DNA of 64,000 bases from Eledone cirrhosa (lineage: Eukaryota), in contig OZ024740.1 of the NCBI GenBank assembly GCA_964016885.1, positions 145,514,001 through 145,578,000 of the forward strand, read 5' to 3'. The notes beneath the pieces were generated by a model. It had not been told where the DNA came from, did no database searches, and saw nothing but the letters and a program-made list of their open reading frames with translations. Numbering within the stretch: position 1 is the stretch's first letter; each line of letters begins with the position of its first letter. Positions 3,624-47,368 of this stretch are shown here, one piece after another. The position numbers were made by a program, and so were the translations under genes.

Positions 3624-3638
3624 AATAATAATAATAAC

Positions 3639-3671
<33 letters not shown>
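3624..3671. repeat. (AAT)n tract at the 3' junction of Tx1 element 1
   Basis: Direct reading. Confidence 0.95.
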
Positions 3672-3673
<2 letters not shown>

Positions 3674-3921
3674 TTTCTTTATTAACCACAAGGGTTTACA
3701 TAAAGTAGACATTAAGGACAGTGCAGGACAATACAGGACGGTACAAATGGGCATTTCTGCGTGTAAAAAACAAAAACAGAGGATGTAACAAAAAATAACA
3801 ATGAAAAATTCCCCAATAGGGGGGAGACTTCGGAGGGACACATGTGGAGAAATCCCATTAAAAGGCCACAATGACCCTGACCACCAAGGCAAGTGCCCTC
3901 TCCCAGTTTTCCACCTTTAAT

Positions 3922-6900
3922 TTACAGACACATACTCAGAGTAGGCCCATTCACTCGGGCCATTCTTGCTTCTCTCACCCATCTTTCAACAAAATGCTGG
4001 GAAGAGAGCACTTCCCTCTCTACTCTGATTTTCCTTTTCAAATGAAATTTGAAAAAGTCAATCAGAGCATCACCGAAGAGGTAAGTGCTCGCCTTCAGCC
4101 CTTTCAAACGTGTCCACCATACTATCTCTTTCGCCATGGCCACCAGACAGATAAAAACTGCCTGCCCTTCCCGGCTAAAGGAGGAGGGCGGGGCAATCCT
4201 CACGATGGACTCAGATGATAGCCGGATCCGTCCTAAACGCGACAACAGGTGTTGACATAAACCCACAAGTCAGCAATTTTCGGACACTGGACGAGTGCGT
4301 GCAGGACGGTTTCGTCGCCCTGCGCGCATCTCGGACATGCCCGGCTGACGGCACCTCCATGCCCGTAGAGTTTATCCCGAACTGGCAAAGCTCCTCGGTA
4401 GCACTGCCAGGCCAGAGATTTCTGGAAGTTGTCCATAGGCCCTGGCCCGAAAGTTCTTCCGAAGAGATTGGCTAGTTGATTTTCGTCGACGCCTAGAGTT
4501 TCCCCAAGTACGTCGTCGCTCTTCCCCTCCACTAATCCTCTATAGAACGCCGAGGTGGAGTTTCCACCGATCACATTGCCCGATTGGTCGAGGGCTGTGA
4601 GCGCCTGAAGACATTCCAGTCTCCAGGCGCTCCCTCTCGGTCTTCGCTTGACTCAGGACTGCAGCTCCGTCAAGGAAACGAGCTGGGGAAATACGTGTCT
4701 AGCAAACGGCGACCACACCTGATCACCGTCGAGGAAGAGGTGGAGATGTCGTAGCCTGAGCGCATGTCTGCGCATCATCAGCCACGGTATGCCCAGCCCT
4801 CCACGTAGCGGGTGTTGAGAACAGATGGACCGCCTGACCATCGGAGCGCGTCCCTTCCACAAAAAGCGAAAGAGCAAACGCTCCAGCGCAGTCAGGGGAG
4901 GCTTAGGACAAGGTACAATGGTCAGGCGGTAGCAGATGACAGACGCGATGTACGCGTTAGCCACCTCCGCTCGACCTTTCAGGGATAGCTTCCTCTCCGC
5001 CCATTTCTGGGTGAGAGAAGCCACCCTGCTCGTCACCTCGTCCCAGTTTTTGTTCGTCTGGAGGTCCGGACCGAACCAGATCCCTAGCAATTTAACCGGT
5101 CCATCCGTCCAGCGTCCGACGACGCTGTTGGACGGCATGGACCTGCCTCTCCAGGTGCCGAGCTGCAGGCCCACTGACTTTTCCTGGTTGATCATTGCTC
5201 CTGTCACCGCTTCGTATTCTCTTAATGTAGTGCCGATCGCCTCGATGTGTTTGGCGTTCGACACCACTACGGTGACAGCGTCCGCATATGCTGACACGGA
5301 TCTTCCGCATCCTAGTTCGCGCGGGATGCCCCTCAACGTCTCCAATTTGTGCAGTAATGGCTCGAGAGTCAATACGTACAATAGGGACGAGAGGGGACAT
5401 CCTTGGCGGACCGAGCGCATGATGCTGAACGGTTCCGACAGGTGACCGTTCACTCTCACCACAGAGCAGATGTCGCTGTGCATGGCAGCGATCCAGCCTC
5501 TGAAGACGGGCCCAAAGCCAGCCGCCCTCAGGACTGCCGCTAGGTAACGATAGTCGACCCTATCGAAAGCTTTCGACTGATCTAAATTGATCAAGGACCC
5601 ACCCGTGCCAGGTTCCCTAGCTACCCTCTCTACGATGTATCGCATGAGGTGGAGGTTGTCGTGGGTGGATCTGTCGGGAATGGCGCATGTCTGCGCCTCT
5701 CCCACCAGACCACCAACGACAAGCGCCAACCTCTTTGCTAGCACCTTGGACAAAATCTTGAACTCTGTGTTTAGCAGAGTTATGGGCCGGAAATTATCTA
5801 TGTTATCCCCTTGTTCGGATCCTTTCTCAGTAGTGCCACCGCTCCTCGGCTCACAGAACTGGGAATTCTCCCGTTCTGTTGCCAGTTGCAGTAGACATCC
5901 GCCAAGAGGCCTCCGAACAAGTCTGGCATCTGTACGTAAAGTTCATAGGGCAGACCATCCAAACCAGGCGATTTACCCCTTGTGCAGCCAGTCATTGCCT
6001 CCCTTACTTCAGCGGCTGTTATCGGCTTTTCGCAACACCTCGCCTCAGTGGCCGAGAGCCGCGGCAGTCCGTCGAGGTAGACACTAAAGTCCATCCCTCG
6101 ACCCGGCCCACCGCTGCCCCCGAACAGCTGAGTGAAGTGTCGCTGAAAAGCTTCACACATTTGCCCGGGATCGAGTAGCATGCGCCCCCGTCGTGGTCCA
6201 CCAAAGACCGGATCGTGGCTTTGTTGCCACGACGCGCCTCCGCCACTCGGGCCCATTGAACGGCTTTCGTCCCCTCGTGTCTGAGACCACGCACCCTTGC
6301 TCTGACAACGCAGCCTTCGTGCTTTGCATTGAAGAATTGGTCAAGGGCCAATTTCGCTGCAAGCACGTCGGTCGCAATGCCTTTGCTAAGCGCCTCGTCT
6401 AATTTTCTTATTAGTTCTCCCTCTGCTCTATTTTTCTCTATTGCTAAAGCCTTACTAAACCTAATGGATTCTATTCTAATCGCTCTTTTCAGAGCAAACC
6501 ACCACTTGTTGTTGACGATGGCCCCCGTCAACGCCCGCTTAACTAGTTCGCTGATCCGGTCTCTGTAGGCCTTGCGCGCTGTTAAGCACGCGTTTAGCTT
6601 CCAGTAGCCGGGTCCTCGTCTATGAAGCCTATCTAAGTCAAGCACTCAGATCACGAATTTGTGGTCCGTGTAGCTGACTATCTTGAATTGTGGACAGCCT
6701 ATGCTAAACCTATCTATTTCCCTACAAAATACTCTATCTAGATATGATCTGGATGACCATATGCGATTTGTCCAAGTCCACATTGGCACATTCGGGAAAT
6801 CCAATCGGTACCTGTCAGACAGTTCAAAACGCCTGAGCAGGTTGGTGAGGCTCTTGCACCCTCCACCCCTATCCGTTAATCCCACACAGTCCCAGCATGC

Positions 6901-7346
6901 ATCTAAGATCCCGTTCCAGTCGCCCACTAACACTAAAGAGCGGGACGTTCCAAGAAAGGTCTCCAGACGCCGGAAGAAATCAGGCCGCCCTGCTCCTGTC
7001 GGGGCATAGACGGCCACTAGCCTGAAAGCTTGCCCGTCTCCGCTGGTCACGTCCAGCACCACCAACTTACCCTCTGGGTCCAGGAAGATGGCCCGTATGG
7101 CGAGATCCAAACCTCTCCGAAAAAGCACAGCAACTCCCCCCCCCCCCCCGATCCAGGACGGCTGGGAGATACGTACACATCGTAGCCGCCGAAGATCGGT
7201 GCGAAGGCCCGTGCTTCGGAGATTCTGGTCTCGCTGATGGCCACTACATCTATGTTTAGTGACCTGAGGTCGTTGAGCAGGTGAGCCTGCTTCCATGACG
7301 ACCCCAAGCCACGCGCATTTATGCTGCCTATTCTGAGTGAGGTCAT
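3922..7346 (-). pseudogene. ORF2 of Tx1 copy 1 (APE endonuclease, reverse transcriptase, C-terminal CCHC), disrupted
   Basis: SINARGL, AISET, VGDWN, YLDRVF, TDHK (APE); KSPGLDGLP, LDQSKAFDRV, VRQGCPLS, YADA (RT, mutated YADD); CPRCAQGDETVLHALVQC; split across several ORFs. Confidence 0.92.
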
Positions 7347-7381
7347 GTTTAAAATAGAGTGGAAAAGATGGGAAAGACCAC

Positions 7382-9521
7382 TTACCGTACTTTTCGTAGA
7401 GGAGGGATGGTTTTTACATCCCTTTTCACTTGATCGTCTGGTGAAGGGACCGTTGAATCGTCCCTTCGGCTGGTCATCGGCTCTTCTATGAGTATGTCCG
7501 AATATACTCTTCGGTTGTTAGTTCCTCCTAGGTCTCTGAAATCACTAACTGCGTTGGGGAATTTCGTTTTAATTTTTGTGTATTGTTTCTGTGCTATTTT
7601 TAGCAGTCTTATGTTAGTTGGCGTTTTGATTGGTGCTGGTATTATGTAGTCGTGTTGTGAAATGTCTGTGTGTTTTATTATGTAAGTCATTAGTTTCTTG
7701 TTGCGTGTATTTATTGCCGTGCATTTGTTTTTCTGTGGGTGGGGTGTGGTTCTGCTATTTTCTTGTCGTTTTTGCTGGGTGTGTGTGTTTTGTTGTTGTG
7801 TTTGCGATGTTGGTGCTTGTGGTGGTGGTGTTGAAGGTGTTGTTGTTGTTGGCGGTGGGGTTGTCGCCGGTGGTGATGGCGGTGCTAGTGTGGGTGGTGA
7901 TGGTATTGGTGGTGTTGCTGCTGTGAGTCTCTTTGCAGTGGACTTTACCCTTTTTCATTTCTTTCCTCCCTTTTCAAAGGCGACGATGCGCTGCTTCTGC
8001 GTTTGTGCCTTCTTACGACCTTTTGCCATCCCTCTCCCACCTCACACTCCATGTCTGATTCTGTGAGGTCGGGGAGGGGTACCAGCTCCACTCTTTCACT
8101 TGTTGTTGTTGGTGATGTTTGCACTGGAGTCGCTGTTGCAGCTGCATTTGGTATTGCTGTTGTTGTTGTTGTTAATACTTCCACTGCTGCTGCTGTTTTT
8201 GATTTCCGTGGCGTGGGTATGGGTGCCACGGACCTATCCTTCCTGGTTGCCGCTTGTCCTGTTGCTGGTAGCCGTGGAGCCGGTTTCGGAAGGAGGGGGA
8301 TTTTCTCCTTTCTCAGGGTCTTCTCGTTGCAGAAGGCCCTGAGGTGAGTCTTCGATCTACAGCGAAAGCATTTCGGGCGTTTGCCCTCAACACTTATGGG
8401 CAGTTGAGTGCCGTTATCGAAGTCTATCACATCCGGGATAGCTTCGATGCACTCCTGGTTGGTTTGGATTAACATCTCAATGGAGGTGCCGACCCAATCT
8501 TCTCTTACTTTTTTCTGTACTTGCAGTACAGTTGTTTTGTCCTCGATTCCGACGAGGACAGACGCGGCCAGCCAAGAAGGGGCCATCCCGGGGGGGGGAC
8601 GTGGGTCAGTTTGACCCTCACAATTTTTGGCCCGCAGTAGGAGGGCACCAACACCATTTCCTCGCTCCTTAGGGTCACTACGGATTGAGCCTTTGCCTCC
8701 TGGGGTGTGGCAAAAAGTACGTCTACGGTGGCATATTTCTTGCCTCGGGTGATGTGTGTTTTCCGCTGCCACACAGACCCCAAGGCTTTTTGTATTTGAG
8801 CCTCTGTGGCTCTTTCCACCCTACGGGATTTTGTACTTATTGTACGGTACGTGACCGTACAGTGCTGTTGGGTTTCGAAAAATTTTTCCGATGCCTTGCA
8901 GATTCCTCGGTGTCCAGTTTTTGTCACCATCTTCTTCGCTTCCTCTAATTCCTCATTTGTTATGAGGATGGTTTCCAGGTTCTTTGCGATACCTGTAAAC
9001 GAGATTGGTTTTTCTTTGCTGCTGTTGTTGTTGTTGTTGTTGTCGTCAGAGCTGCTGTTACTTTTGTTGTTGCTGCAGGTACTACGACTACTGCCGCCGC
9101 CGCTGTTGCTGTGGTTGTTGTTGTTGTTGCTGCTGCTGCTGCTGTTGTTGTTGCTGCTAATGCTGTTGTTGTTTATGCTGCTGCTGATGCTGTTGCGGCT
9201 GCTACTGTTGTTTTCCTTGTCACTGTTGCTGCTGTTATTACGGCTGCTACTGCTATTATTCCTGACGTCAGACGAATGAAATGGGTTTTCGTATTTCCCG
9301 CACACCTTTTTCGTCGTTGTCGTCGTCGTCGTGGAGAAATCTTGCTCGCTTTGCACGTGATTTTTCTTTTCTGGCGTCGCTTGTGAAAGAGAAGGGAGGG
9401 AGAGAGACACATTTAGAGAAGGGAGGGAGAGAGACAATCTTCTCTCTGCTGTAGTGACGATTGAGGAAGAAGAAGACGGAATGAGTGGGAGTGACCTATG
9501 AAAATTCTTTTTCGTAGCCAT
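7382..9521 (-). pseudogene. ORF1 (gag-like, CCHC knuckle) of Tx1 copy 1, two frameshifts
   Basis: CFRCRSKTHLRAFC knuckle; ORFs 8505-9521, 7945-8772 and 7382-7690 join through frameshifts at a G-run (~8590) and a T-run (~7951). Confidence 0.8.
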
Positions 9522-9738
9522 GTTGTTTTTCTTTGTTTAAAGTAAATATTGGGCACAAAACCCCAATAGGCGGTTATTTCACCCCGAAGGGCCAAATAAC
9601 GGGCAGAAAGACCCCTCTCACGAGGAGGAGGGTGTTTTTGTCTACAAGTTGGTTAAAGTTTTAAACAATTTACAATTGTTATAGCGGTCAAAATTTGCAA
9701 TACCTTACAGAGCCGAGCCTCCGTCAACCATAGCATTC

Positions 9739-9786
<48 letters not shown>
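9739..9786. repeat. (AAT)n tract separating the two Tx1 copies
   Basis: Direct reading. Confidence 0.95.
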
Positions 9787-9788
<2 letters not shown>

Positions 9789-10035
9789 TTTCTTTATTAA
9801 CCACAAGGGTTTACATAAAGTAGACATTAAGGACAGTGCAGGACAATACAGTACGGTACAAATGGGCATTTCTGCGTGTAAAAAACAAAAACAGTGGCTG
9901 TAACAAAAAAAACAATGAAAAATTCCCCAATACGAGGGAGACTTCCGAGGGACATTCGTGGAGAAAGCCCATTAAAAAGCCACAGTGACCCTGACCTCCA
10001 GGACAAGTGCCCTCTCCCAGTTTTCCACCTTTAAT

Positions 10036-13000
10036 TTACAGACACATACTCAGAGAAGGCCCATTCACTCGGGCCATTCTTGCCTCTCTCACCCATCTTT
10101 CAACAAAATGCTGGGAAGAGAGCACTTCCCTCTCTACCCTGATTTTCCTTTTCAAATGAAATTTGAAAAAGTTAATCACGGTATTACCGAAGAGGTAAGT
10201 GCTTGTCTTCAGTCCTTTCAAACGTGTCCACCATACTATCTCTTTCGCCATGGCCACCAGACAGATAAAAACTGCCTGCCCTTCTCGGCTAAAGGAAGAG
10301 GGCGGGGCAATCCTCACGATGGACTCAGCTGATAGCTGGATCGTCCTACACGCGACAGCAGCTGTTCGACATAAACCCACAAGTCAGCAATGCTCGGACA
10401 CTGGACGAGTGCGTGCAGGACGGTTTCGTCGCCCTGCGCGCATCTCGGACATGTCCGGCTGACGGCACCTCCATGCCTGTAGAGTTTATCCCGAACTGGC
10501 AAAGCTCCTCGGTAGCACTGCCAGGCCAGGGATTTCTGGAAGTTGTCCATAGGCTCCGGCCCGAAAGTTCTTCCAAAGAGATTGGCTAGTTGATTTTCGT
10601 CGACGCCTAGAGTTTCCCCAAGTACGTCGTCGCTCTTCCCCTCCACTAATCCTCTACAGAACGCCAAGGTGGAGTTTCCACCGATCACATTGCCCGATTG
10701 GTCGAGGGCTGTGAGCGCCTGAAGACATTCCAGTCTCCAAGCGCTCCCTCTCGGTCTTCGCTTGACCCAGGACTGCAGCTCCGTCAAGGAAACGAGCTGG
10801 GGAAAGACGCGTCTAGCAAACGGCGACCACACCTGATCACCGTCGAGGAAGAGGTGGAGATGTCGTAGCCTGAGCGCGTGTCTGCGCATCATCAGCCACG
10901 GCTTGCCCAGCCCTCCACGTAGCGGGTGTTGACAGCAGATGGACCGCCTGACCATCGGAGCGCGTTCCTTCCACAAAAAGCGAAAGAGCAAACGCTCCAG
11001 CGCAGTCAGGCGGGGCTTAGGACAAGGTACGACGGTCAGGCGGTAGTAGATGACGGACGCGATGTACGCGTTAGCCACCTCCGCTCGACCTTTCAAGGAT
11101 AGCTTCCTCTCCGCCCATTTCTGGGTGAGAGAAGCCACCCTGCTCGTCACCTCGTCCCAGTTTTTGTCCGTCTGGAGGTCCGGACCGAACCAGACCCCTA
11201 GCAATTTAACCGGTTCGTCCGTCCAGCGCCCGACGGCGCTGTTGGACGGCATGGACCTGCCTCTCCAGGTGCCGAGCTGCAGGCCCACTGACTTTTCCTG
11301 GTTGATCATTGTTCATGTCACCGCTTCGTATTCTCTTAGTGTAGTGCCGATCGCCTCGATGTGTTTGGCGTTCGACACCACTACGGTGACATCGTCTGCA
11401 TATGCTGACACGGATCTTCCGCATCCTAGTTCGTGGGGGACGCCCCTCAACGTCTCTAGTTTGTGCAGTAATGGCTCGAGAGTCAATACGTACAAGAGGG
11501 ACGAGAGGGGACATCCTTGGCGGACCGAGCGCATGATGTTGAACAGAGCAGATGTCGCTGTGCATGGCAGCGATCCAGCCTCTGAAGACGGGCCCAAAGC
11601 CAGCCGCCCTCAGGACTGCCGCTAGGTAACGATGGTCGACCCTGTCGAAAGCTTTCGACTGATCTAAATTAATCAAGGATCCACTCGTGCCAGGTTCCTT
11701 AGCTACCCTCTCTACGATGTATCGCATGAGGTGGAGGTTGTCGTGGATGGATCTGTCGGGAATGGCGCATGTCTGCGCCTCTCCCACCAGACCACCAACG
11801 ACAAGCGCCAACCTCTTTGCTAGCACCTTGGCCAAAATCTTGAACTCTGTGTTTAGCAGAGTTATGGGCCGGAAATTATCTATGTTATCCCCTTGTTCGG
11901 ATCCTTTCTCAGCAGCGCCATAGCTCCTCGGCTCACAGAGCTGGGAATTCTCCCGTTCTGTTGCCAGTTGCAGTAGACGTCCGCCAAGAGGCCTCCGAAC
12001 AAGTCTGGCATATGTACGTAAAGTTCATAGGGCAGACCATCCAAACCAAGCGATTTACCCCTTGTGCAGCCAGTCATTGCTCCCGTACTTCAGCGGCTGT
12101 TATCGGCTTTTCGCAACACTCCGCCTCAGTGGCCGAGAGCCGCGGCAATCCGTCGAGGTAGACACTAAAGTCCATCCCTCGATTCGGCCCGCCGCTGCCC
12201 CCGAACAGCTGAGTGAAGTGTCGCTGAAAAGCTTCACACATTTGCCCGGGATCGAGTAGCATGCGCCCGTCGTGGTCCACCAAAGACCGGATCGTGGCTT
12301 TGTTGCCACGACTGCCTCCGCCACTCGGGCCCATTGAACGGCTTTCGTCCCCTCGTGTCTGAGAGCACGCACCCTAGCTCTGACAACGCAGCCTTCGTGC
12401 TTTGCATTGAAGAATTAGTCAAGGGCCAATTTCGCTGCAAGCACGTCGGTCGCAATGCCTTTGCTAAGCGCCTTGTCTAATTTTCTAACTAGTTCTCCCT
12501 CTGCTCTATTTTTCTCTATTGCTAAAGCCTTACTAGACCTAATGGACTCTATTCTAATCGCTCTTTTCAGAGCAAACCACCACTTGTTGTTGACGATGGC
12601 CCCCGTCAACGCCCGCTTAACTAGTTCGCTAATCCGGTCTCTGTAGGGCTTGCGCGCTAGCAAAGACGCGTTTAGCTTCCAGTAGCCGGGTCCTCGTCTA
12701 TGAAGCCTATCTAAGTCAAGCACACAGATCACGAATTTGTGGTCCGTGTAGCTGACTATCTTGAATTGTTGACAGCCTATGCTAAACCTATCTATTTCCC
12801 TACAAAATACTCTATCTAGATATGATCTGGATGACCCTATGCGATTTGTCCAAGTCCACATTGGCACATTCGGGAAATCCAATCGGTACCTGTCAGACAG
12901 TTCAAAACGCCTGAGCAGGTTAGTGAGGCTCTTGCACCCTCCTCCCCTATCCGCTAATCCCACACAGTCCCAGCATGCATCTAAGATCCCGTTCCAGTCG

Positions 13001-13419
13001 CCCACTAACACTAAAGAGTGGGACGTTCCAAGAAAGGTCTCCAGACGCCGGAAGAAATCAGGCCGCCCTGCTCCTGTCGGGGCATAGACGGCCACTAGCC
13101 TGAAATCTTGCCCGTCTCCGCTGGTCACGTCCAGCACCACTAACTTACCTTCTGGGTCCAGGAAGATGGCCCGTATGGCGAGATCCAAACCTCTCCGAAA
13201 AAGCACAGCAACTCCTCTCCCCGATCCAGGACGGCTGGGAGATGCGTACACATCGTAGCCGCCGAAGATCGGTGCGAAGGCCCGTGCTTCGGAGATTCTG
13301 GTCTCGCTGATGGCCACTACATCTATGTTTAGTGACCTGAGGTCGTTGAGCAGGTGGCCCTGCTTCCATGACGACCCCAAGCCACGCGCATTTATACTGC
13401 CTATTCTGAGTGAGGTCAT
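10036..13419 (-). pseudogene. ORF2 of Tx1 copy 2 (APE-RT-CCHC), disrupted
   Basis: Intact APE ORF 12415-13419; RT with YADD; ~30-bp deletion near 11543 relative to copy 1; further frameshifts and stops. Confidence 0.92.
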
Positions 13420-13453
13420 GTTGAAATGGAGTGGAAAAGATGGGAAAGACCAC

Positions 13454-15333
13454 TTATCTTACTTCTCCTAGAGGAAGGATGGTTTCTCCATCCTTTTCAC
13501 TGCTTGTGGCCTCCTCCGGAAGGATGTCCTTATAAATCCTCCTGGAGAGTGCTTGTCGGAAGTCTCTGATGTCTTTGGGGAATTTTTGTTTTAGTGTCGT
13601 GTACGTTTTCTGTGTGATGCGAGTGATTTGTATGTGTGGAGGTGGTATGAACTTTGGGGGTGTTGTGTAGTCTTTTTCTGTGATGCAGGTGTTGTGTTGG
13701 ATGTAGTGTAATAATTGGTTGTTGTTCAAATTTAATGCTGTGTAGTGTGTATCGTTTTGGTTGTTTTGTTTCGTTTGCATTTATTGTGGGTTTGTTTCTG
13801 TTTCGCTTTTTGGTGACTTTTGTGGTGTTGGGGTTAATGGTGGTGATGGTGTTGGTGTTTGTGGTGATGGGGTTGGTGATGCTGGTGTGGATGGTGGCAT
13901 AGCTGTCCTAACTTTTTTGTTTGATAGTTTATTTGTTTCCCTCTGTATTTTGTTTTTGGAGGGGGGAGGAAGAGGATTTTTTCTTGTGGGGCTTCTTTTT
14001 CTTTTTTTCTTTTTTCCTGATACCGTTTCCCACTCCTCGTCGTCACAATCTGTTTCCAGTTGCGATAGGTCAGGGAGTGGAAAATCCTCCACAGGCGTTG
14101 GTTTTGGTTGTGGCGTGGTGGATGGTGTAGGCGCTGGTGCTAGTTCTGGCGCGTTGGGTGGTGGTGGTGGTGTTGGTTTTGCTACTGTTGCTGGGGTTGT
14201 TGCTGTTCCAGTTGCTTCTGTTGTTGCTGCTACAGTTGTTGCTGCCATTTCTGCTGCTGGTCGTGTTGATGGTTGAGTCACTGGGGTGGGTAAGAGAGGT
14301 GGCGTCAACCTTTTAGCCTGAGGGCAGAAAGCCCTTAGGTGGGTTCCTTCACCACAAACGACACACCTAGGCCTTCTGCCCTCGACGATTACGGTGAGGT
14401 GGCTGCCGTCAGTGAGGTCTATTACCTCTGGGATCTCCTCAATGCTTTTTTGGTCCGCTTGGATCAGGAGCTCCATCCCAGATCCGGACCAGTTCTGCTT
14501 TTCTTTCGCTATTTCGATTATCTTGGTGTTGGCCTCGATGCCGGCGAGGACGGCAGCCATTAGCCAGGGAATTTCGATGGCCGGTGGAACGTGGGTCACC
14601 CTGATCTTCACGAGTCTCTGGCCACAATAGCTTGGGACGAGTGTGAAGTCGTCACTTCTTAATGGGGCCATGGAGTGTTCTCTGGCCTCCTTTGGTGTTC
14701 CAAAGAACACGTCCACGGTTCCATATTTCTGCCCACGTCTGATGTGGGGTTTTTTTGCCCACACATGTCCCAAAGCTTTTGGGATTTGGGACTCGGATGC
14801 CCGTTCCAGTTGGCACCGATGCTCCATTTTATTAGGTGGGGGGTGAGGCTGACCCTATGCCCATCTTTCTTTACCATTCTCTGGGCTTCATCTAATTCCT
14901 CCTGAGTTACCTAGATTGCTTCGCACTTTTTTGCTGCTTTAGCAAAAGACACGTTGGTTTTGTTATTCTCATTGTTGCTGTTGCTGTTGTTGTTATCGTT
15001 ATTTTTGTTATTGTTATTTTTAGTTTCAGTTATGGTGGTGGTGGCGTCAGTGGTGTTCGGTGTGGAAGAGTCCATTCTGGGTGAATCCATTTCGATGTCA
15101 CGAGATAATTTATTTTTTTATTTTGTTTCTGTTGTCGCTGTGGTGGTGGTGGGGGTGGCGGCTTCAACACCTGCAGTCATTGGTAATGGCGGGAAATGAA
15201 TGTCTGCATGAGACAAATTTAAATTATTGCTACTGCTTATATTTTTAGTGTTGGCAAACGTAGTAATATTTACAATGGTGGTGTCGGTGTGAGGTGTTAG
15301 TTTGTGAGGAAGGTGTGGCTGTGAGTCGTCCAT
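13454..15333 (-). pseudogene. ORF1 (gag-like, CCHC knuckle) of Tx1 copy 2
   Basis: CVVCGEGTHLRAFC knuckle; LVPSYCG...THVPP shared with copy 1; in-frame TAA at 13781-13783; 5' part is frameshifted. Confidence 0.78.
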
Positions 15334-15547
15334 GGTTTTTCAAAGAAATTTTTTTGTTTGATAATTATAAAAGTTTAAATTTTGGGCTCAAGGCCCCAAT
15401 CTTTTTGAGTGTCCTTTTCCGAAAGCAAATTGTGTGACCTTATAAACAGTTAACAACAAAAATTTTCCATAAATGGCAATTTTAAACAAACGAAAACAAC
15501 AAACCTTTGCGGAGCTCACAATGATACGATTTCCTACGTAGGTCGCC

Positions 15548-15598
<51 letters not shown>
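15548..15598. repeat. (AAT)n tract at the 5' junction of Tx1 copy 2
   Basis: Direct reading. Confidence 0.95.
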
Positions 15599-15850
15599 TG
15601 TTTTGACTGGTACTGCACACGTATTAAGAAGAGCACTATCTCTGTAAGATTGATATCCCTCCTTGTATTTACATATGCATATGCACATGTGTATATATGT
15701 ATACTTTTTGTTTTTTGTTTTGTTTAATTATAATCAATGTGCTGTATTAACTGGCTTACCAATGCACACTTTCAATTTATTTGCCCTAGGTGTCAAGAAG
15801 ACATTCGGTATATATCTCAGAAACAATAATGAAAGAAAATAAAATGATAA

Positions 15851-18439: not shown

Positions 18440-19450
18440 AAGAACAGTAGATGAAAGGTGATTTTAAGGAGAAAAAAAGAAGGCATGATGGAGATCTGCA
18501 CGATGAATACGGCTTATAACTGAATCCTTACAAACGCAACTCTGTTCGACATAATTTCATAAGTCAGCAATACTTGCAAAACTGAAGGAGTGTCAGCAAA
18601 CAGTTTCGTCGTTCTGCGTGCGTCTCAAATAGTTACGGTTCACGGCACCTCCGTTTCAGTACAGTTTATCCTGCACTCACAATGCCTCCAGTAACACTGT
18701 GAGACCGAGTATTTCTGAAGATTGTTCATTGTCTCCAGGCTAAAAGTTCTTTGAAATAAATTGTTCAGTTGATTTTTTTGTCGGTACCTCGAGTCATCAT
18801 GAGAATGTCGTCACTCATTTCTGCCACTAGCCGTCTATATAATGTTATTGCTAACGTACCATCCACTGCATTTCTCGACTGGTAGAGAACTGTGAATACT
18901 TTAAAACGTGTTGTGCTATGTGGCAGACACTCAACCTTGCTCGACCCAAAACTGGACTGCAGTTCTACCAACGAGATGAGCTGTGAAGTACCGTAACCAG
19001 CTACTACACCTCTCAGCTCATTTCATCGTGATTCTGCCGACTTGTTCTGATTACATACTCCTATTACCAAATCGTATTCTTTTGTGTGCCGACCACTTCG
19101 ATTCCATAGAGTCTGCCACCACCAAAGTTACATCAACGCAACCTGCCCGTGTCACAGTTCCAGGGGGATACTCCATAACACCTGTAACATCCACAACAGT
19201 GGTTCAAAGTCCAAAGGGTACTGGAGTGACGAGAAAAGACTACTGTGATGGACTGATCATGTGATTCGAAACGGTTTTGATAGTTACTGATTTAGTCTGA
19301 CCAGCAGTTCCCGCTGTACTTTAAAGCGATTCAGCCTCTGAAAATGGGACCGAAATCGGCTGCACTGCAGATAAATGATGACCAACCCTTTTAAAAGCTT
19401 TTGAAGATCCAAGTGGATCAGAATCCTACCTAAGCCAGGATTATTAACCT
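18440..19450 (-). mobile_element. Old, decayed fragment of the Tx1 family
   Basis: 18530-18800 resembles 4230-4520, and 19325-19400 resembles the RT region 5488-5575. Confidence 0.7.
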
Positions 19451-24976: not shown

Positions 24977-24993
24977 CATACATACATACATAC

Positions 24994-25396
24994 ATGGTGG
25001 CTGCCAACTCGTTTTCGAGTACGGCCACTACTTTATATCCATGTAGGAGAACCCCTACCGATGCGCTGAACGAATGTGACTTTTTAGTCCAGCCAGCAAC
25101 TTGAAAACTCTGGTACAAAGACTACACTTGTGACCATTATTGACACATAGTGCAGGACCCATGGTACCATGTGATGACAAGTGCAGAGAGATCTCCAGAT
25201 ATAAAGCAATGCCTGTGCCGTGAAGCTTTTATAGTGAGCAAAGGCACTGCACAAAGCCAGTCCCACTCTCTTAACCAAGATGATATTTACCAAAAAGAAG
25301 AACAAGTCAACATCATTGGATACCATCAGGGTTGCAGGTGTTATATCAGAGTTTTCCTTCTCCTAGAATTCTGCCTTGACAAAGGCTAAGGGGTCA
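24994..25396 (-). mobile_element. Non-autonomous RTE-derived element X, 5'-truncated
   Basis: Near-identical to 29444-30048, 32807-33415 and 48378-48986. Confidence 0.8.
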
Positions 25397-25413
25397 TATA
25401 CATACATACATAC

Positions 25414-26000
25414 ATGATGATGGCTGCCCCCTCGTTATCGAGTATGGCCATTGCACGATATACCATTATTAATAATTATTAATTAATTCTATCGTGCAAT
25501 GCCTGTGCGTGAAGATAATTTTTAAAGTGAGGAAAGACTGTGCACTGAGCCAATCCCACTCTCTGAGCGACAGTAGCTATAACCCGAAAAGAAGAAAAGA
25601 TCAACATCATCGGTAACTACTGAGCTGCAGGTTTTATATCGGAGGTATCCCAGTTTCCTGAGTTGCCTTCTCCTAGAAGAATCCCGACTATTTCTATGTC
25701 CCCGTGCATATACATACACATGCTCCCATGTATATACACATATGTACATATGTACATGTGTATATACATATACATACATATGTACATGTCTATATACATA
25801 TTTACACACTTTTGGATGGCCGTTGACTCTTATGAGTTCTTCCACCCTTTGTCAGGTTTTGTTTTTTGTCCTGCAAGGTATCCAAAATTACCCTCCTCAC
25901 CAAGTAAACTTGGTGGGGTTGCCGATTTAGTCGCCGACGACCCGACCAGCGACAGGTTGTACTGGGTTACATGTTACCAGTAGCACTCAAGAGTGACCCG
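25414..26000 (-). mobile_element. Bipartite non-autonomous RTE element (X-like 5' part plus family-Y 3' terminus)
   Basis: 25810-26000 is homologous to the 5' part of X; 25414-25458 matches the RTE-Y 3' end. Confidence 0.7.
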
Positions 26001-26016
26001 ACATACATACATACAC

Positions 26017-26443
26017 ATCTGCAGATACTCCACCCTGATTACACCTTCAGATTTATGCCTGTGATTATTAGGGCACTAGGATATGTTAGTAACTGCCTCA
26101 ATACAAATCTTGAGAAGCTAGGCTTCACAGGAACAGAAAGAACACAACTAGTTAGGAAATTACAAGTACAATCCATTAATGGAACAGTAAAAATATGTAA
26201 AACATTCCAAAGAAAGTCTAATAACTGCATATACACATGAACAGATTCAAAGCATATACACATGCACACATACAACTCAAAACATACACATCCACACATA
26301 CAATAACATCCATATCTACACATGCATGCATACATACATATAGTTGATGCTGTGTAAATTCCAATGAGAGAGTCTTGTGTCTATGTTAGAAACCGACTCT
26401 CTCTCTATTGGTAAAATTTTGTGAAATTATAAAACCAGAAGAA
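26017..26443 (+). mobile_element. R4/Dong-clade LINE family A, short 3' fragment
   Basis: Near-identical to 28982-29426; ends ...AAAACCAGAAGAA followed by (CATA)n. Confidence 0.85.
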
Positions 26444-26476
26444 CATACATACATACATACATACATACATACATAC

Positions 26477-26638
26477 ATGATGATGGCTGCCCCCTCGTTA
26501 TCGAGTATGGCCATTGCACGAAGAGAAAAAAAAATTAATAAATAAATAAAAAAGAAAAGAAAAATAAAAAGAAAAGAAAAAAAAAATATATATATATATA
26601 TATACACATACACACATACACACACATACATTAATAAC

Positions 26639-26715
<77 letters not shown>

Positions 26716-26892
26716 CAATGATAATAACGACAACAACAATAATAATATACATATACATATATATATACACATACACGCACACACATAAGCATATCTATAC
26801 ACACACACACACGATAGCAACTAACAGCGCTGCGATCGAATGTGGCTTTTTAGCCCAGCCAATGATCTAAAATGTCTTGCACAGAGTCGGCA
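26477..26892 (-). mobile_element. RTE family Y 3' fragment, second copy
   Basis: Matches 24442-24703, with expanded internal (AAT)n. Confidence 0.8.
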
Positions 26893-26928
26893 ACATACAT
26901 ACATACATACATACATACATACATACAT

Positions 26929-29193
26929 AACTCCAAGATAAGAAAACACCAGGAAGAGACATGATTGTCGGCTACTGGCACAAAAAACTAATATTCTATC
27001 GGAGGTATCTTACTGACCTCTACCAACAAGTTCTTAAGGGAGATACACTTATACCAGAATGGTTGACATAAGCACAAACGTTACTGGTCCCCAAGAACAA
27101 AGACACCCACTTGGCAAAAAACTACCGACCCATTGCATGCCAGAGCCTGATGTATAAGATGTATACAGCCTGCCTCAACCTATTCCTCCAAGATCACTGT
27201 GAAAATAATAACATCATCACAGATGAACAAGCAGCTGGAAAGAAAAGGGTTTGGGGATGTGCTGAACAACTCCTAATCAACAAAACTGCGATGTTGGAGG
27301 TGTGACAACTTAGGAGGAATATGACTACAGTCTGGCTGGACTACAAGAAAGCTTTCGATTCTGTTGCCCACTCTTGGATGATAGAGGCCCTCCAACTTGC
27401 TAAAGTCCCAGACATTATTGTCAGAGCCATAGAGAGGCTGTCTTCTTCTTGGGCTACTATCCTAAGGTTAAAGACAGAGAGGGAGGACTCTATTTTCACT
27501 GATAAAATAAAATATTGCAGGGGTATATTTCAGGAGGACAGTCTCTCTGTGATATTGTTCATCTTGTCATTAAACCCCTTGTACTTTCTGCTCAAGAAAT
27601 GTGAGGGATACATCATTGGCTCACAGGAGGACAGAAATACGAACCTAACCCATAACTTCTTTGTGGACGATCTGAAACTCTATGCCAAGAACATGGATGG
27701 GATGAAGAAAAATCTTGACCTGGTTACAACGTTCTCAAAGGATATAGGAATGGAGTTTGGCCAAGATAAATGCTCATACATGACTGTAAAGCGGGAAAAA
27801 ACAACAACCCAATATAGCAACATTGTCATCAATGGTCTAACTGTTTCACCGATATCTGATGAGGACTGCTGCAGATACCTGAGGATAGATGAGAACATAT
27901 CCTATAATGGTATCTGTAATAAAGAACGCGTAACCAGGGAATACTACACCCGATTAAGAAAGATCTGGTCATCGGAACTCTCTGCGCAAAACAAAACAGT
28001 GGCTCACAATGTGTTTGCTGTGCCTGTCCTAACACCAACGTTTGGAATACTCAATTGGACGATAGACGAAATCCGAGCAGTTGATGTTGGAACTCGAAAA
28101 ATACTGAACAACACCGGAAACTTCCACATCAACAGTGACATAGACCGCCTTTACTTGAAACGTAAGCAGGGAGGCAGAGGCCTAACATCAGTCCAGACAA
28201 CATTTGAATGTCGCATCTTATCTCTCCGACAACATCTACGAACCTCGAAGCGTAGGAGCCCGCTTCTCGAGCAAGTCTATCTGCATGAAACAGATAAGAT
28301 CATGAGAGTTGGGAAGGAACTCCTTGAGAGATATTCCCTGTGTGATAATCAAAAACTCACACCCAGGGATGTCGCTCAGCAGTATCGCAGTGAATCCATG
28401 GATGAAAAACTGCATGCCTATCAGCAAAAAATCATGCATGGATATGTTGCCAGGAAGCTCCAGAGTGAGAGTAATATAGATAAGGAAAGTAGTCTATCTT
28501 GGACCAACAACCGCTACATTGGCTCCCACTTTGAAGGATACGATTTTGCACAAAAGAGATAGGGATGCAGGCAAAACACCTAGATGTGATAACAAGTGCA
28601 GACTCTGCAGAACTAACATCGTGGATATCACCCATGTCATCAGCAGCTGCCCAAAGATGTCATCGCGGTATTATCTATCTATTTTGCATGATGTAGTGGC
28701 CAAAACTCTGTACAATGCAGTCCGTAAAAAAGATAGCCCCGATAATAAACACATTAAAAGCTACAACAATGTGGAAGACATCCATGTACATAATATGAAA
28801 GAGTACTGGTGGAATGTTCCAGTAAAAACCTCAATAAAATGCAGGCATAACAGACCAGATATTATGATATGGGACAGGGAGAAGAAAACATGCACAGTAG
28901 TGGAAATTAGCTGCCCAGCAGATGCCAATATAATATCAAAGATTAGTGAAAAGGAGAATATTTATGCAGAACTGATGAGAAATCTGCAGATACTCCACCC
29001 TGATTACACCTTCAGATTTATGCCTGTGATTATTGGGGCACTGGGGTATGTTAGTAATTGCCTCAATACAAATCTTGAGAAGCTAGGCTTCACAGGAACA
29101 GAAAGAACACAACTAGTTAGGAAATTACAAGTACAATCCATTAATGGAACAGTAAAAATATGTAAAAGATTCCAAAAATGTTGCATCGAATAA
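26929..29193 (+). pseudogene. RT-RLE ORF of Dong family A (disrupted)
   Basis: NYRPIAC, WLDYKKAFDSV, GIFQEDSLS, FFVDDLKLY, GGRGL, CRLCRTNIVDITHVISSC, RPDIMIWD..VVEISCP..KENIY; stop at ~27303 and frameshift at ~28550. Confidence 0.88.
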
Positions 29194-29426
29194 CTGCATA
29201 TACACATGTACAGATACAAAGCATATACACATGCACACATACAACTCAAAACATACACATCCACACATACAATAACATCCATATCTACACATGCATGCAT
29301 GCAGACATACATACATATCTACCTAGTTGAGGTTGTGTAAATTCCAATGAGAGAGTCTTGTGTCTATGTTAGAAACCGACTCTCTCTCTATTGGTAAAAC
29401 TTTGGGAAATTATAAAACCAGAAGAA
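26929..29426 (+). mobile_element. R4/Dong-clade RLE LINE family A, 5'-truncated
   Basis: RT plus CCHC plus restriction-like endonuclease; (CATA)n on both sides. Confidence 0.88.
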
Positions 29427-29443
29427 CATACATACATACATAC

Positions 29444-30048
29444 ATGGTGGCTGCCAACTCGTTTTCGAGTACGGCCACTACTTTATATCCATGTAGGAGA
29501 ACCCCTACTGATGCGCTGAACGAGTGTGACTTTTTAGTCCAGCCAGCGACTTGAAAACTCTGGTACAAACACTACACTTGTGACAATTACTGACACATAG
29601 TGTTGGGCCCATTGTACCCTGTGATGACAAGTGCAGAGAAATCTCCAGATATAAAGCAATGCCTGTGCCGTGAAGCTTTTATAGTGAGCAAAGGCACTGC
29701 ACAAAGCCAGTTCCACTCTCTTAACCAAGATGATATTTACCAAAAAGAAGAACAAGTCAACATCATTGGATACCATCAGAGTTGCGGGTGCTATAACAGA
29801 GTTTTCCTTCTCCTAGAATTCTGCCCCGACAAAGGCTAAGGGGTCATCTCTCCCGGTGATTTTGGATGGCCATTGACTCTTAAGAGCTCCTTTGCCCTTT
29901 GACAGGTTTTGTTTTTAGTCCTGCAGGATGTCCAAAGTCACCCTCCTCACCAAGAAACCTTGGTGGGGTTGCCAGTTTAGTCGCCAACGACCCGACCATG
30001 AGACAGGTTGTACTGGGATACATGTTACCAGTAGCACCAACTAGTGAC
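29444..30048 (-). mobile_element. Non-autonomous RTE-derived element X (~605 bp, full length)
   Basis: No credible ORF; RTE-type 3' end CGAGTTGGCAGCCACCAT followed by (GTAT)n; four copies in the window. Confidence 0.8.
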
Positions 30049-30137
30049 CATACATACATACATACATACATACATACATACATACATACATACATACATA
30101 CATACATACATACATACATACATACATACATACATAC

Positions 30138-31001
30138 AAAATTGACCAATTTACAGAAAAAGATGTGCACGGGTACTTGAGACGTAAAACACAGACCATA
30201 GAGGGGATAAACCACTCAAAAATCCTGGCATGGAGTTCCGACAAGTTTATGACATCACAACTTGAGGGATATCTCTCTGCAATACAGGAACAAGAACTCC
30301 CTACCAAATATCTGGTGCACAAAAGAGGAAGGCCATCAGCTGACAATAAATGCAGACTATGTAAAACAAAGATAGAAGATGTAAGCCACATTGTTGCCAG
30401 CTGCGAAAGAATGTCATCTCGCTACTACCTCCCATGAGACAGGATGGGATAGCTAGAACCATCTGGAACGCATTTCGGAAATCAAAATTAACAACAAACG
30501 AGGAAGAATATATTGAGACAGATGGCACTAAGGAAGACTGGTGGAACCTGAAAATAAAAACTGCCACCAAATTAAAGCACAACCGGCCTGATATTGTTGT
30601 TTGGGACCACACATTGAAAACGTGTTCTGTTGTGGAGATCAGCTGCTCACTTGATGTAAACGTTGTCAGAAAAATACAGGAGAAGGAGGACATCTACGGA
30701 CCATTGATGAGGAGTTTACAAATCCAGTATCCAAGATACACCTTTAGCTTCTTACCCATCATTATTGGAGCTACGGGTTATATACCAACCCGCTTGGACC
30801 AATGTATAATTGAACTTGGATTTGCGGACAAAGAGCGCAGCTCCCTAATTCATAGTCTACAAATGGCTGCGATAGCTGGCACCTTCAAAATTTGCAAAAC
30901 ATTCTTGCGATTCAAGGGATGACAATTTCTTTTCTTTTACAACCTTGCCACCAGGAAGGTGGCCGGTCAAAAATAAACTCGAAATTAAGAGAAAGAGATA
31001 A
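30138..31001 (+). mobile_element. R4/Dong-clade LINE family B, 3' fragment
   Basis: AIQEQEL, CRLCKTKIEDVSHIVASC, NRPDIVVWD..VVEISC..KEDIY; ends GAGAAAGAGATAA followed by (CATA)n. Confidence 0.85.
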
Positions 31002-31091
31002 CATACATACATACATACATACATACATACATACATACGTACGTACATACATACATACATACATACATACATACATACATACATACATACA

Positions 31092-31121
<30 letters not shown>

Positions 31122-31122
<1 letters not shown>

Positions 31123-32789
31123 TTTGAAAAATAAATACAAAATATTAGTGAATAGACGAACTCATCATGGTAAAACGTACAAGTCTTCTTCGACCAAATC
31201 GCAACTACAACCGTTATATACAGTGGAGCTACGAGCTTAACAAAGAATTATATGAAGCATACAAACAATCTGAACCCCAAAAGTTCGGTTTTATGCAAAG
31301 GCTAAAAACTTTATGGAACTCCAAACACCCAGAATTAGACTTTTCTCCAAAGCATTTAAATGAACAGGCAAAACGTATTATTAGATGTAAATTGATACAT
31401 CTAACGGAATTGAGCGATACTACAAATACAGCCCTTGCAGACAACCACCCCACCTCCACTGACAGACAAAGAGAATGGCCAGCTAAATCTAACAGTGAAC
31501 AGCTCACCAACAATTTTGCAGAAATCCATCCCTCTTCCACTGAAGAACAACGAGAATGGTCAGCTAACTCTAGTAGTAATTGTCACCACATCAACAACGA
31601 GGCTGAAATTCATGACTCTACAGTACAAGCAGAACACCAAAAACTTGTGGACACCTTACAAGTGATATGGAACGTTATGTTTCAAGAGATACACAGCCTT
31701 AATGTGAGTGACAGACCATACAACACCAGAATCAGTAAAGAACCCACTAAATTGGAATTGTAAGCGGTGAACTAAATAGCTGACAATTATCTGAAGGCTA
31801 TACGATCTAAAGGTGTAGAAACGACATTTGAAACGCTTAACATTTTGTTATATGTTTCAGCTGTCACATTGCTATCATATAACAAACATCTAAAACCACG
31901 CAATCAAGATACAAACAAAAAGCCTGAACCAGCGTGGATGCGAAATTTAAAAGGCAAAATTTTGTCCCTGAGACGAAGTATCTCACACATCGCAGTCGTT
32001 ATGAAATTCAACATAGAGAGCAACTTCACACGACACCAGGAAGCCCTAAAAAAAGTTCGAGACGATTTGGAGATACAAAATTTAAAACTTTAAACTCCAA
32101 ATTACACCAGTTGAAACAACAACTCACAGCTACAACAGAAAGACTAAAATATAAGTCAACAGCACATAAACGACAAGTGCTAAATAGATTGTTTGCCAGA
32201 GATCCTAAAACAGTTTATCGCAGCTTCGGTGGTAAAAGCTCAATCTCTGTAAATGACACCCCTTCAAAAGAACAGGTTGGGAGCTACTGGAGATCTGTAT
32301 GGAAAACGGATGATGGATTCAACAGACAAACTAATTGGCTAAAAGAACTGGAACAGGACTACTGCCAACATGTCCAGACAAAACAATATGACATAGATGG
32401 GTCAATACTGGAAACAGCTCTACAGAAAATGTCGAATAGGAAATCACGTTGTCAGAAAAATACAGGAGAAGGAGGACATCTACGGACCATTGATGAGGAG
32501 TTTACAAATCCAGTATCCAAGATACACTTTTAGCTTCATACCCATCATTATTGGAGCTACGGATTATATACCAACCCGCTTGGACCAAAGTATGACTGAA
32601 CTTGGATTTGCGGACAAAGAGCGCAGCTCCCTAATTCATAGTCTACAAATGGCTGCGATAGCTGGCACCTTCAAATTTTGCAAAACATTCTTGTGATTCA
32701 AGGGATGACAATTTCTTTTCTTTTACAACCTTGCCACCAGGAAGGTGGCCGGTCAAAAAAATATACTTGAAATTAAGAGAAAGAGATAA
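31122..32789 (+). mobile_element. R4/Dong family B with intact 5' end and internal deletion of the RT
   Basis: N-terminus WSYELNKELYEAY..GFMQRLKTLWNSKHP; jumps at ~32446 from the pre-RT region into the RLE segment equivalent to 30660 onward. Confidence 0.8.
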
Positions 32790-32806
32790 CATACATACAT
32801 ACATAC

Positions 32807-33415
32807 ATGGTGGCTGCCAACTCGTTTTCGAGTACGCCCACTACTTTATATCCATGTAGGAGAACCCCTACCGATGCGCTGAACGAGTGTGACTTTTTAG
32901 TCCAGCCAGCGACTTGAAAACTCTGGTACAAACACTACACTTCTGACAATTATTGACACATAGTGCTGGGCCCATGGTACCATGTGATGACAAGTGCAGA
33001 GAGATCTCCAGATATAAAGCAATGCCTGTGCCGTGAAGCTTTTATAGTGAGCAAAGGCACTGCACAAAGCCAGTTCCACTCTCTTAACCAAGATTGTATT
33101 TACCAAAAAGAATAACAAGTCAACATCATTGGTAACCACCAGGGTTGCAGGTGTTATATCAGAGTTTTCCTTCTCCTAGAATTCTGCCTTGACAAAGGCT
33201 AAGGGGTCATCTCTCCCAGTGATTTTGGATGGCCATTGACTCTTAAGAGCTCCTTTGCCCTTTGACAGGTTTTGTTTTTAGTCATGCAGGATGTCCAAAG
33301 TCACCCTCCTCATAAAGAAACCTTGGTGGGGTTGCCAGTTTAGTCGCCAACGACCCGACCATGAGACAGGTTGTACTGGGATACATGTTACCAGTAGCAC
33401 CAACTGGTGACCTGA
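32807..33415 (-). mobile_element. Non-autonomous RTE-derived element X (full length)
   Basis: Copy of 29444-30048, flanked by (CATA)n. Confidence 0.8.
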
Positions 33416-33453
33416 CATACATACATACATACATACATACATACATACATACA

Positions 33454-33484
<31 letters not shown>

Positions 33485-45524: not shown

Positions 45525-45576
<52 letters not shown>

Positions 45577-45643
45577 AAGGTTTAGTAAATAATGAAAAAG
45601 TTTCAAAATAAATTTTAAAAAATTGACTTTACCCACTATAGTT

Positions 45644-45727
45644 ACCTTTACCGATCGGTTTCGAATCCCAAAAATAAAACGTAGGCCATACGGCCTTCGT
45701 TGCAAAGAGAGATTCTCGTCAGAAGGT
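45644..45727 (-). ncRNA. Type I hammerhead ribozyme
   Basis: Reverse complement of 46582-46665. Confidence 0.85.
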
Positions 45728-46581
45728 TCTTTTCATTCAAAGAATATAAAATTCCTGAATTTAAATCACAAACTAGCGCTATCAAAGACTGTTCCTGGGA
45801 TGAGAGTGGATGATGTAGAACAGGTTTATCAAGGGCCGTAGTAAAGATAGAGGCAAAAGGAGGTAGGTCAAACTAGCCACCGCTGTTATCAGCAGCAGTC
45901 GGAATGACCCGGTTTGTTCTCAACGTATGTGGAGGTAGTAGTAATATGAAATACGTCCTTTCACGCACAAGGCGCCAAGGTACGCATGTATTGTCCAACC
46001 AAGTGCCAGTGTGGTTCAATGGCGGGTTAATAAATTAACGAGCCAGAACAAATATAAACAAGGTTTAGTAAATAATGAAAAAGTTTCAAAATAAATTTTA
46101 AAAAATTGACTTTACCCACTATAGTTGGGCCTACGTATGGCCTACGTTTTATTTTTGGGATTCGAAACCGATCGGTAAAGGTAACTATAGTGGGTAAAGT
46201 CAATTTTTTAAAATTTATTTTGAAACTTTTTCATTATTTACTAAACCTTGTTTATATTTGTTCTGGCTCGTTAATTTATTAACCCGCCATTGAACCACAC
46301 TGGCACTTGGTTGGACAATACATGCGTACCTTGGCGCCTTGTGCGTGAAAGGCCGTATTTCATATTACTACTACCTCCACATACGTTGAGAACAAACCGG
46401 GTCATTCCGACTGCTGCTGATAACAGCGGTGGCTAGTTTGACCTACCTCCTTTTGCCTCTATCTTTACTACGGCCCTTGATAAACCTGTTCTACATCATC
46501 CACTCTCATCCCAGGAACAGTCTTTGATAGCGCTAGTTTGTGATTTAAATTCAGGAATTTTATATTCTTTGAATGAAAAGA

Positions 46582-46665
46582 ACCTTCTGACGAGAATCTC
46601 TCTTTGCAACGAAGGCCGTATGGCCTACGTTTTATTTTTGGGATTCGAAACCGATCGGTAAAGGT
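46582..46665 (+). ncRNA. Type I hammerhead ribozyme
   Basis: ACCTT-CTGACGA-GAATCTC..GGGATTC-GAAA-CCGATCGG-TA/AAGGT: complete core, stems I and II, palindromic stem III, GUA cleavage after 46660. Confidence 0.88.
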
Positions 46666-47064: not shown

Positions 47065-47148
47065 ACCTTCTGACGAGAATCTCTCTTTGCAACGAAGGCC
47101 GTATGGCCTACGTTTTATTTTTGGGATTCGAAACCGATCGGTAAAGGT
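47065..47148 (+). ncRNA. Type I hammerhead ribozyme
   Basis: Identical motif 483 bp downstream; cleavage after 47143. Confidence 0.88.

Positions 47149-47321: not shown

Positions 47322-47368
<47 letters not shown>

Follow-up and report, generated by a model that had tools for sequence, protein, structure and literature searches.

Recruitment of a new 5' end is well known in long interspersed nuclear elements (LINEs), but its mechanism has been argued from breakpoints that are old or that lie in homologous sequence. In mouse L1, the families L1MdTf and L1MdGf are inter-family recombinants, 5' untranslated regions (5'UTRs) have been recruited, and families with non-homologous promoters coexist (PMC3600994). 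The SVA subfamilies SVA_F1 (MAST2 exon 1) and pt_SVA_D6 (STK40 exon 1) were founded by splicing (PMC6139936), and the first open reading frame (ORF1) of CR1/L2 LINEs has had a reticulate evolution (PMC4120745). Tx1 elements target microsatellites, (TC)n for Kibi, (TTC)n for Koshi and (TTCC)n/(TTTC)n for crocodilian elements (PMC4494074). L1-Tx1 families are among the recently active ones in Octopus vulgaris (PMC13282606), and a long coexistence of L1 families is described outside mammals (PMC5381506).

Here we describe a hybrid LINE from Eledone cirrhosa. The window, that is, the whole 64,000-nucleotide stretch analysed (contig OZ024740.1, positions 145,514,001 to 145,578,000), carries two full-length L1-group LINEs, A and B, placed head-to-tail on the minus strand with (ATT)n runs between and flanking them (Table 1). 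Frameshifts, stops and small deletions have eroded the two copies in the window. On the sequence comparisons given below, element A is almost certainly a hybrid, in which a family that we call oA has supplied the 5'UTR and ORF1, and family B the tail of ORF1, the spacer, ORF2 and the 3'UTR. The same genome shows both parents, a tandem substrate, the time order and a join defined to a single base. This join points to splicing, which the literature compared describes for the non-autonomous SVAs and not for autonomous LINEs. Two questions thus become testable: can LINE modules be shuffled by splicing where target-site insertion builds tandem arrays, and do two fronts on one shared ORF2 allow two families to stay active together?

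The two elements and their parent families

Positions 3672-7430 (A) and 9787-13501 (B) are 95.0% identical over 3,760 columns, which comprise ORF2, the 3'UTR and the tail of ORF1; the near-identity of the 3' parts noticed in an earlier, sequence-only reading of the window is thus borne out. That reading placed the collapse of similarity exactly at the ORF1 stop (13456-13454 in B; Table 1 for A). The real boundary lies about 45 nucleotides (nt) further, inside ORF1, between 7429 and 7428 in A and between 13500 and 13499 in B, so that the last 12 ORF1 codons are common to both elements; a 42-nt gap in the alignment directly precedes it. Upstream of this boundary the DNA of A and B can be aligned only in the ORF1 core (8329-8818 versus 14324-14808, 64%), and the 5'UTRs, which had been judged unalignable, give no significant match. 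The two ORF1 proteins had been called distantly homologous, and the motifs quoted do occur in both, but the proteins prove to be full-length homologues; their identity is 41% across 489 columns and reaches 55% within the folded core. The ORF2 proteins are 96.8% identical. These protein comparisons were made on the near-intact copies L017 (A) and L005 (B), the latter without the N-terminal part of ORF1 owing to a frameshift.

Copies were counted genome-wide as exact matches to short markers: the marker of the ORF2 start has 4,714, that of the A front 2,399 and that of the B front 2,145. Neither combination is therefore unique to this locus, and the proposal that two variants coexist holds, each having been amplified to more than 2,000 marker matches. 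Queries across the A and B junctions were each spanned over nearly their whole length by 40 of 40 scored matches, and both junctions are crossed by contigs from public runs, that of A in X4 record 12 and X5 record 21 and that of B in X6 record 31. Runs X4 and X6 are labelled as other organisms; their low-depth contigs are 97-98% like these elements, junctions included. The first 60 ORF2-start matches listed (L001-L060), a non-random sample that lies entirely on contig C1, comprise 18 A fronts, 42 B fronts and no other. ATT repeats stand upstream of all 52 copies that reach the exact 5' end, and an ATT tail follows 50 of 51 3' ends. This proportion of full-length copies (52/60) is high for a LINE, although only copies that extend to the ORF2 start could enter the sample. 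The modern ORF2 was also searched for a third kind of front, and none was found in the 60 sampled loci, in 16 more or among the first 100 of 4,348 ORF1-motif matches listed.

Three older groups were traced: oB, with the B front and a B-type ORF2; oA, with the A front and its own spacer and ORF2; and C, with an A-related front and its own ORF2 in all C loci except L107. Relatives at 65-75% were also encountered. The parental, oA-type junction has 74 exact matches, and the 59 such loci that were read comprise 57 oA and 2 C copies, none with a B spacer. In the ORF1-core tree (73 rows, to the exclusion of those with fewer than 250 aligned bases), mid-age and young A cluster with oA (99) beside C and apart from oB and B. 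In the ORF2 tree (72 rows; a subsample of the modern rows, and without 8 old rows of low coverage), oA stands with family C on a long branch (100, branch 0.095) and all modern A copies fall inside the B lineage. The two trees, whose congruence would have spoken against an exchange, are in conflict: holding all A-fronted rows together in a 25-row ORF2 constraint test costs 734 log-likelihood units and is rejected by the approximately unbiased (AU) test (p=7.5e-76).

Which family took the ORF2 of the other? Column majorities of the oldest hybrids and of mid-age B differ at 0 of 1,116 ORF2 codons, and their 248 UTR bases are identical; the dS of this ORF2 to that of oA is 0.46. In the ORF1 core, the oldest hybrids lie within dS 0.03 of oA. 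Since the ORF2 of the oldest hybrids is that of mid-age B and their front is close to oA, it was A that took the B ORF2, while B kept the ancestral pairing. On this evidence the transfer is one-way, A front onto B ORF2. The modular recombination proposed earlier is right insofar as a whole 5'UTR and ORF1 sit on a foreign ORF2; there was no mutual exchange, however, but a single transfer of the A front at non-homologous positions.

Pairwise differences average 8.2% among 37 oA copies (nearest pair 4.2%), against 5.2% among the oldest hybrids and 5.6% in mid-age B. Family oA is older and now inactive, and the hybrid, which rose as oA faded, is now about thirty-fold commoner by marker counts. Young A copies differ by 0.45% and young B copies by 1.1%, with 3.6% between them in ORF2 and 3'UTR, and these low divergences indicate that both families were active recently. 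Both ORFs are open in four A copies and in no sampled B copy, the latter partly because of a poly-C slippage site. This poly-C run, of variable length, lies just before the ORF1 core in L005 and other B copies, and of the 12 B copies examined it frameshifts ORF1 in most. Five young A copies, each about 99% identical to L017, lie in tandem at L077-L080 (G000:C1:55.42-55.46 Mb), adjoining a far older relative at 66%.

The join and its possible origins

The parental oA sequence reads GATCAAG/GTAAGTGA, that of B reads AAGCAG/TGAAAAGG, and the hybrid has GATCAAG/TGAAAAGGG. The segments that precede the oA and B donors are homologous, and the hybrid carries both in series, 42 nt being duplicated; the join is therefore offset and is not a crossover. 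All sampled hybrids share this one sharp join. It falls on the only AG/GTAAGT of a 5,980-nt oA copy, CAAG/GTAAGT being present in all parental loci examined, and on the B side it directly follows CAG. The aligned donor offers a longer word common to both, GGTAAGT, which was not used. An added base that returns ORF1 to the B frame and stop is found in 33 of 34 sampled hybrids, the remaining one having a deletion there.

We consider splicing of a tandem read-through RNA to be the likeliest cause of this join, with a somewhat better than even chance of being right. The RNA would run from an oA copy through an (ATT)n linker into the B copy behind it, and the GTAAGT donor of oA would be spliced to a weak CAG acceptor in B. 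The spliced RNA would then retrotranspose, once, as the founder of the hybrid, and a one-base gain would put ORF1 back on the B stop. What favours splicing is a join at an offset position that lies exactly on the sole AG/GTAAGT of an oA copy and behind a CAG in B; of the possible joins that keep ORF1 and the B spacer, 1.1-1.7% break at the oA donor base. The unused longer word at the aligned donor and the absence of any intermediate of a two-step route, described below, also speak for it. A B front follows oA, within the stretch fetched, in 7 of 57 oA loci, and such tandem loci provide a substrate for read-through. As in SVA_F1 and pt_SVA_D6, a subfamily would have arisen from a promoter-bearing 5' part spliced to an acceptor inside the element and would then have been amplified, and as in SVA_F1 the 5' part that was taken up stops precisely at a splice donor, the CAG acceptor here standing in a weak context. 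The SVAs, however, are non-autonomous, took a host exon and reached 84 and 94 copies, whereas here an autonomous LINE with more than 2,000 copies would have taken the promoter and the whole ORF1 of a sister LINE (PMC6139936). No paper that describes two autonomous LINEs joined into a hybrid by splicing turned up in the literature searched, which lacked most subscription journals and Repbase, so that absence from print is not shown.

Several observations weigh against this interpretation. The splice step rests on one event. The B acceptor is weak, with no pyrimidine tract and with AGs just upstream, and a better-looking acceptor 42 nt upstream, ACTCTCCAG/G, was left unused. The AG common to both sides is also a 2-nt microhomology. 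The chance figure of 1.1-1.7% assumes uniform joins and was computed after the coincidence had been seen. Exact-pattern searches, by which copies that are decayed or that continue differently are missed, gave 0 matches in the genome to a second join at the oA donor, no spliced copy among 12 variants behind the B-type donor, and 0 matches to a copy without the 52-nt mini-intron. Four genomic copies, two of them of the old type, have no added base, which may be later losses. Finally, holding only modern A monophyletic on ORF2 is not rejected (p=0.119, 25 rows).

Could the same hybrid have been produced without the spliceosome? A switch of the reverse transcriptase (RT) from B RNA to oA RNA through the shared AG, or a pairing of RNA with a genomic copy at insertion, is possible but less likely; the landing on the donor would then be due to chance, to a free 5' exon end or to the edge of a helix. 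Mechanisms of this kind have been considered for the L1 recombinants of the mouse, in which an older 5' end is recruited by a younger 3' end (PMC3600994), and the overlap in time of oA and B, the later ORF2 mosaics, which show that splicing-free exchange is common here, and the weakness of the acceptor all agree with them. A switch guided by homology should nevertheless favour the aligned GGTAAGT word, whose product was seen in 0 of 9 matches and 0 of 57 oA loci, and a switch alone does not account for the exact position on the donor (1.1-1.7%). That position is likewise left unexplained by a deletion in the DNA of a tandem oA-(ATT)n-B locus, repaired at the 2-nt microhomology, or by the insertion of a 5'-truncated B into an oA copy, which we regard as improbable even though such tandem loci exist (7/57) and internal deletions with short overlaps are numerous among the copies; insertions otherwise target (ATT)n, at 52 of 52 and 50 of 51 ends.

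We give very little credit to a history without any transfer, in which the ORF2s of two old families were kept alike by continual gene conversion, or in which the pair reflects a local duplication or an assembly collapse. ORF2 mosaics do occur, but oA copies retain their own ORF2 and spacer, every sampled hybrid has the single sharp offset join, the copies are dispersed and number in the thousands with junctions bridged in independent contigs, and the ORF1 and ORF2 trees, together with the AU test, contradict it.

Other routes were tried and set aside. A homologous crossover at the aligned donor is represented by none of 9 matches, the odd one, L185, being a B copy with an internal deletion. 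For a two-step origin through a 5-nt AGTGA overlap and a subsequent 5-nt loss, the 4 matches are all direct joins and no intermediate appears. A mini-intron fusing ORF1 to ORF2 in frame is unsupported, with 0 intron-less genomic copies and a frame that fails in oA. Internal ORF2 deletions were considered as splice products; the ends listed are not GT-AG by eye.

Like the mouse families L1MdTf and L1MdGf, the hybrid combines a 5'UTR and ORF1 from one family with an ORF2 from another; further points in common are the simultaneous activity of families with non-homologous 5'UTRs, exchange along ORF2, and trees that conflict across a breakpoint shared by the family. In the text compared, the mouse breakpoints are situated in aligned parts of ORF2, ORF1 or the 3'UTR, and three mechanisms are given, none of which is splicing (PMC3600994); here, the ORF1s are only 41% identical, the founding join has an offset of 42 nt and lies on a splice donor, and the elements belong to an invertebrate. 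In CR1/L2 elements, too, ORF1 moves between lineages while ORF2 remains tree-like. That case, however, was deduced from deep trees (PMC4120745), whereas the event described here is recent and has left both parents and the join in one genome.

A predicted RNA structure may have contributed to the position of the join. The duplex between the ORF1/ORF2 spacer and the sequence behind the ORF2 stop beats all 100 shuffles in four of four copies. The B-type 5' arm has predicted energies of -58 to -63 kcal/mol with the 3' arm of its own group in three of four groups and -55 in the fourth, versus -39 to -45 kcal/mol with the oA 3' arm. The oA 5' arm gives -57 kcal/mol with its own 3' arm, -49 to -53 with B-type arms and -68 with that of C. 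The helix is thus predicted to be partly family-matched, and it would favour joins upstream of the B spacer, where the join is in fact observed, taking the B spacer and ORF2 as one unit.

The two families after the fusion

Mosaics were scanned for at 70 lineage-marking sites, CpG sites being excluded and the mid-age ORF2 common to both families being taken as ancestral. At least four non-CpG alleles of the other lineage were found in 5 of 34 copies with an A front and in 6 of 43 with a B front, and they often form blocks (L008, L049, L029, L060, L057, L013). Unlike the offset founding join, these later A/B mosaics are aligned exchanges, and as the blocks pass both ways, ORF2 behaves as a pool shared by the two fronts. 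A further crossing, single among 20 C loci, is seen at L107:2643-6268, where a C front and the first ~1 kb of C ORF2 pass to a B-type ORF2 at about +900 to +1200, the families being about 18% apart.

The dN/dS ratio is 0.07-0.08 in the ORF1 core of both lineages and 0.08-0.12 in ORF2, and comes near 1 only in low-complexity parts of ORF1. The ORF1 core is under purifying selection; positive selection was considered, and the core gives no sign of escape at the protein level. Silent sites behave differently. Since the fusion, fourfold-degenerate sites have changed at 15/100 (A) and 8/81 (B) positions in the ORF1 core, versus 20/566 and 18/562 in ORF2 (Fisher p=4e-5 and 0.01), so that the silent sites of the folded core (window 8350-9040) have evolved three to four times faster than those of ORF2 (3922-7346) in both lineages. 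The change is gradual and mostly non-CpG, and the Pro/Thr-rich part of ORF1 is as slow as ORF2. Escape from small-RNA silencing, constraint on the silent sites of ORF2, or resetting of ORF2 by recombination could each be the cause. The rapid silent change is the one hint in favour of the escape from host silencing that the earlier reading had suggested as a possibility.

A wider and more speculative view, which we think has perhaps a modest chance of being right, is that the lineage carries a built-in hinge, made of the conserved donor at the end of ORF1 and the family-matched helix around ORF2. Tandem pile-up at (ATT)n would let the spliceosome graft the promoter and ORF1 of one family onto the enzyme cassette of another, rescuing the front of a dying family; the fronts would diverge at silent sites to dodge sequence-based silencing, with ORF2 as their common pool.

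Protein domains, class and other features of the window

Three ORF2 domains score above the cut-off, PF03372, PF00078 and PF13966, corresponding to an N-terminal AP-like endonuclease, the RT and a C-terminal zinc motif, and the best relative of solved structure is LINE-1 ORF2p (E 1.5e-52), followed by R2 at 1e-21. ORF1 matches no Pfam family above the cut-off, an MBD match falling below it. The structural model of its core has a pLDDT of 92.5 and finds tandem RRM proteins as best folds (E about 1e-4, TM 0.36), and the conserved Cys of a CCHC motif are present. Relatives of the ORF1 core were found by a profile-free full search, a word-index search having given nothing; of ten ORF1 relatives looked up, seven are named, and all seven come from octopods. 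A tblastn search of ORF2 against plasmids gave no match, a result that carries no weight here. From the domain order of ORF2 and the separate ORF1 with predicted RNA-binding domains, both elements are L1-group retrotransposons that lack long terminal repeats (non-LTR). The 120 homologues listed include no named Tx1 reference, and the closest named one is an Argonauta protein (73%). Target specificity in the Tx1 clade has been defined as the same repeat in more than 20% of flanks (PMC4494074), and the ATT frequencies given above far exceed this figure. Like Kibi and Koshi, the elements are two-ORF endonuclease-RT LINEs specific to a microsatellite, with (ATT)n as a different target; the Tx1 label given to them in the earlier reading is putative.

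Table 1. Features of elements A and B, in window positions
Feature	Position	Strand	Remarks
(ATT)n run, 3' end of A	3624..3671	-	Sequence; ATT repeats after 50/51 sampled 3' ends
Element A, decayed full-length LINE, almost certainly a hybrid (front from oA, ORF2 and 3'UTR from B)	3672..9739	-	
3'UTR of A	3672..3921	-	ORF2 match stops at 3925
Predicted helix 3' arm of A	3888..3914	-	Just behind ORF2 stop; complementary to the donor and the spacer that precede ORF2
ORF2 of A (endonuclease, reverse transcriptase, zf-RVT)	3922..7346	-	Four frameshifts here; 1139 aa in intact copies
B-derived spacer in A	7347..7385	-	Starts with GTAAGT donor motif, overlapping ORF1 stop 7384-7382
B-derived ORF1 end in A (last 12 codons and added G)	7386..7428	-	Duplicates homologous oA segment just upstream
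Join in A	7428..7429	-	oA part ends CAAG, parent goes on GTAAGT; B part begins TGAAAAGG
ORF1 type A	7382..9521	-	~698 aa in intact form; N-terminus of low complexity, two RRM domains (predicted) with a CCHC knuckle, linker rich in Pro/Thr, C-terminal domain
5'UTR type A	9522..9739	-	
(ATT)n run between B 3' end and A 5' end	9740..9786	-	
Element B, full-length LINE, ancestral front and own ORF2	9787..15547	-	Decayed mid-age copy
Predicted helix 3' arm of B	10001..10028	-	
ORF2 of B	10036..13419	-	Broken: deletion near 11543 and frameshifts
Family-B site where the A front was joined	13499..13500	-	GCAG/TGAAAAGG
ORF1 type B, homologous to type A	13454..15333	-	Broken in window copy
5'UTR type B	15334..15547	-	
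(ATT)n run, 5' end of B	15548..15599	-	ATT repeats upstream of 52/52 sampled 5' ends

Elsewhere in the window, decayed fragments of a distant ORF2 relative (35-53% at the amino acid level) lie at 18491-19448, and a near-perfect palindrome of 1.17 kb occupies 45569-47331, with nested duplications that are 97-100% identical. A repeat of 400-700 bp is present in four copies at 96% (24977-33483, 48360-49107, 58233-59436). A longer element related to this repeat has open frames at 27306-29193 and is likely another retroelement family.

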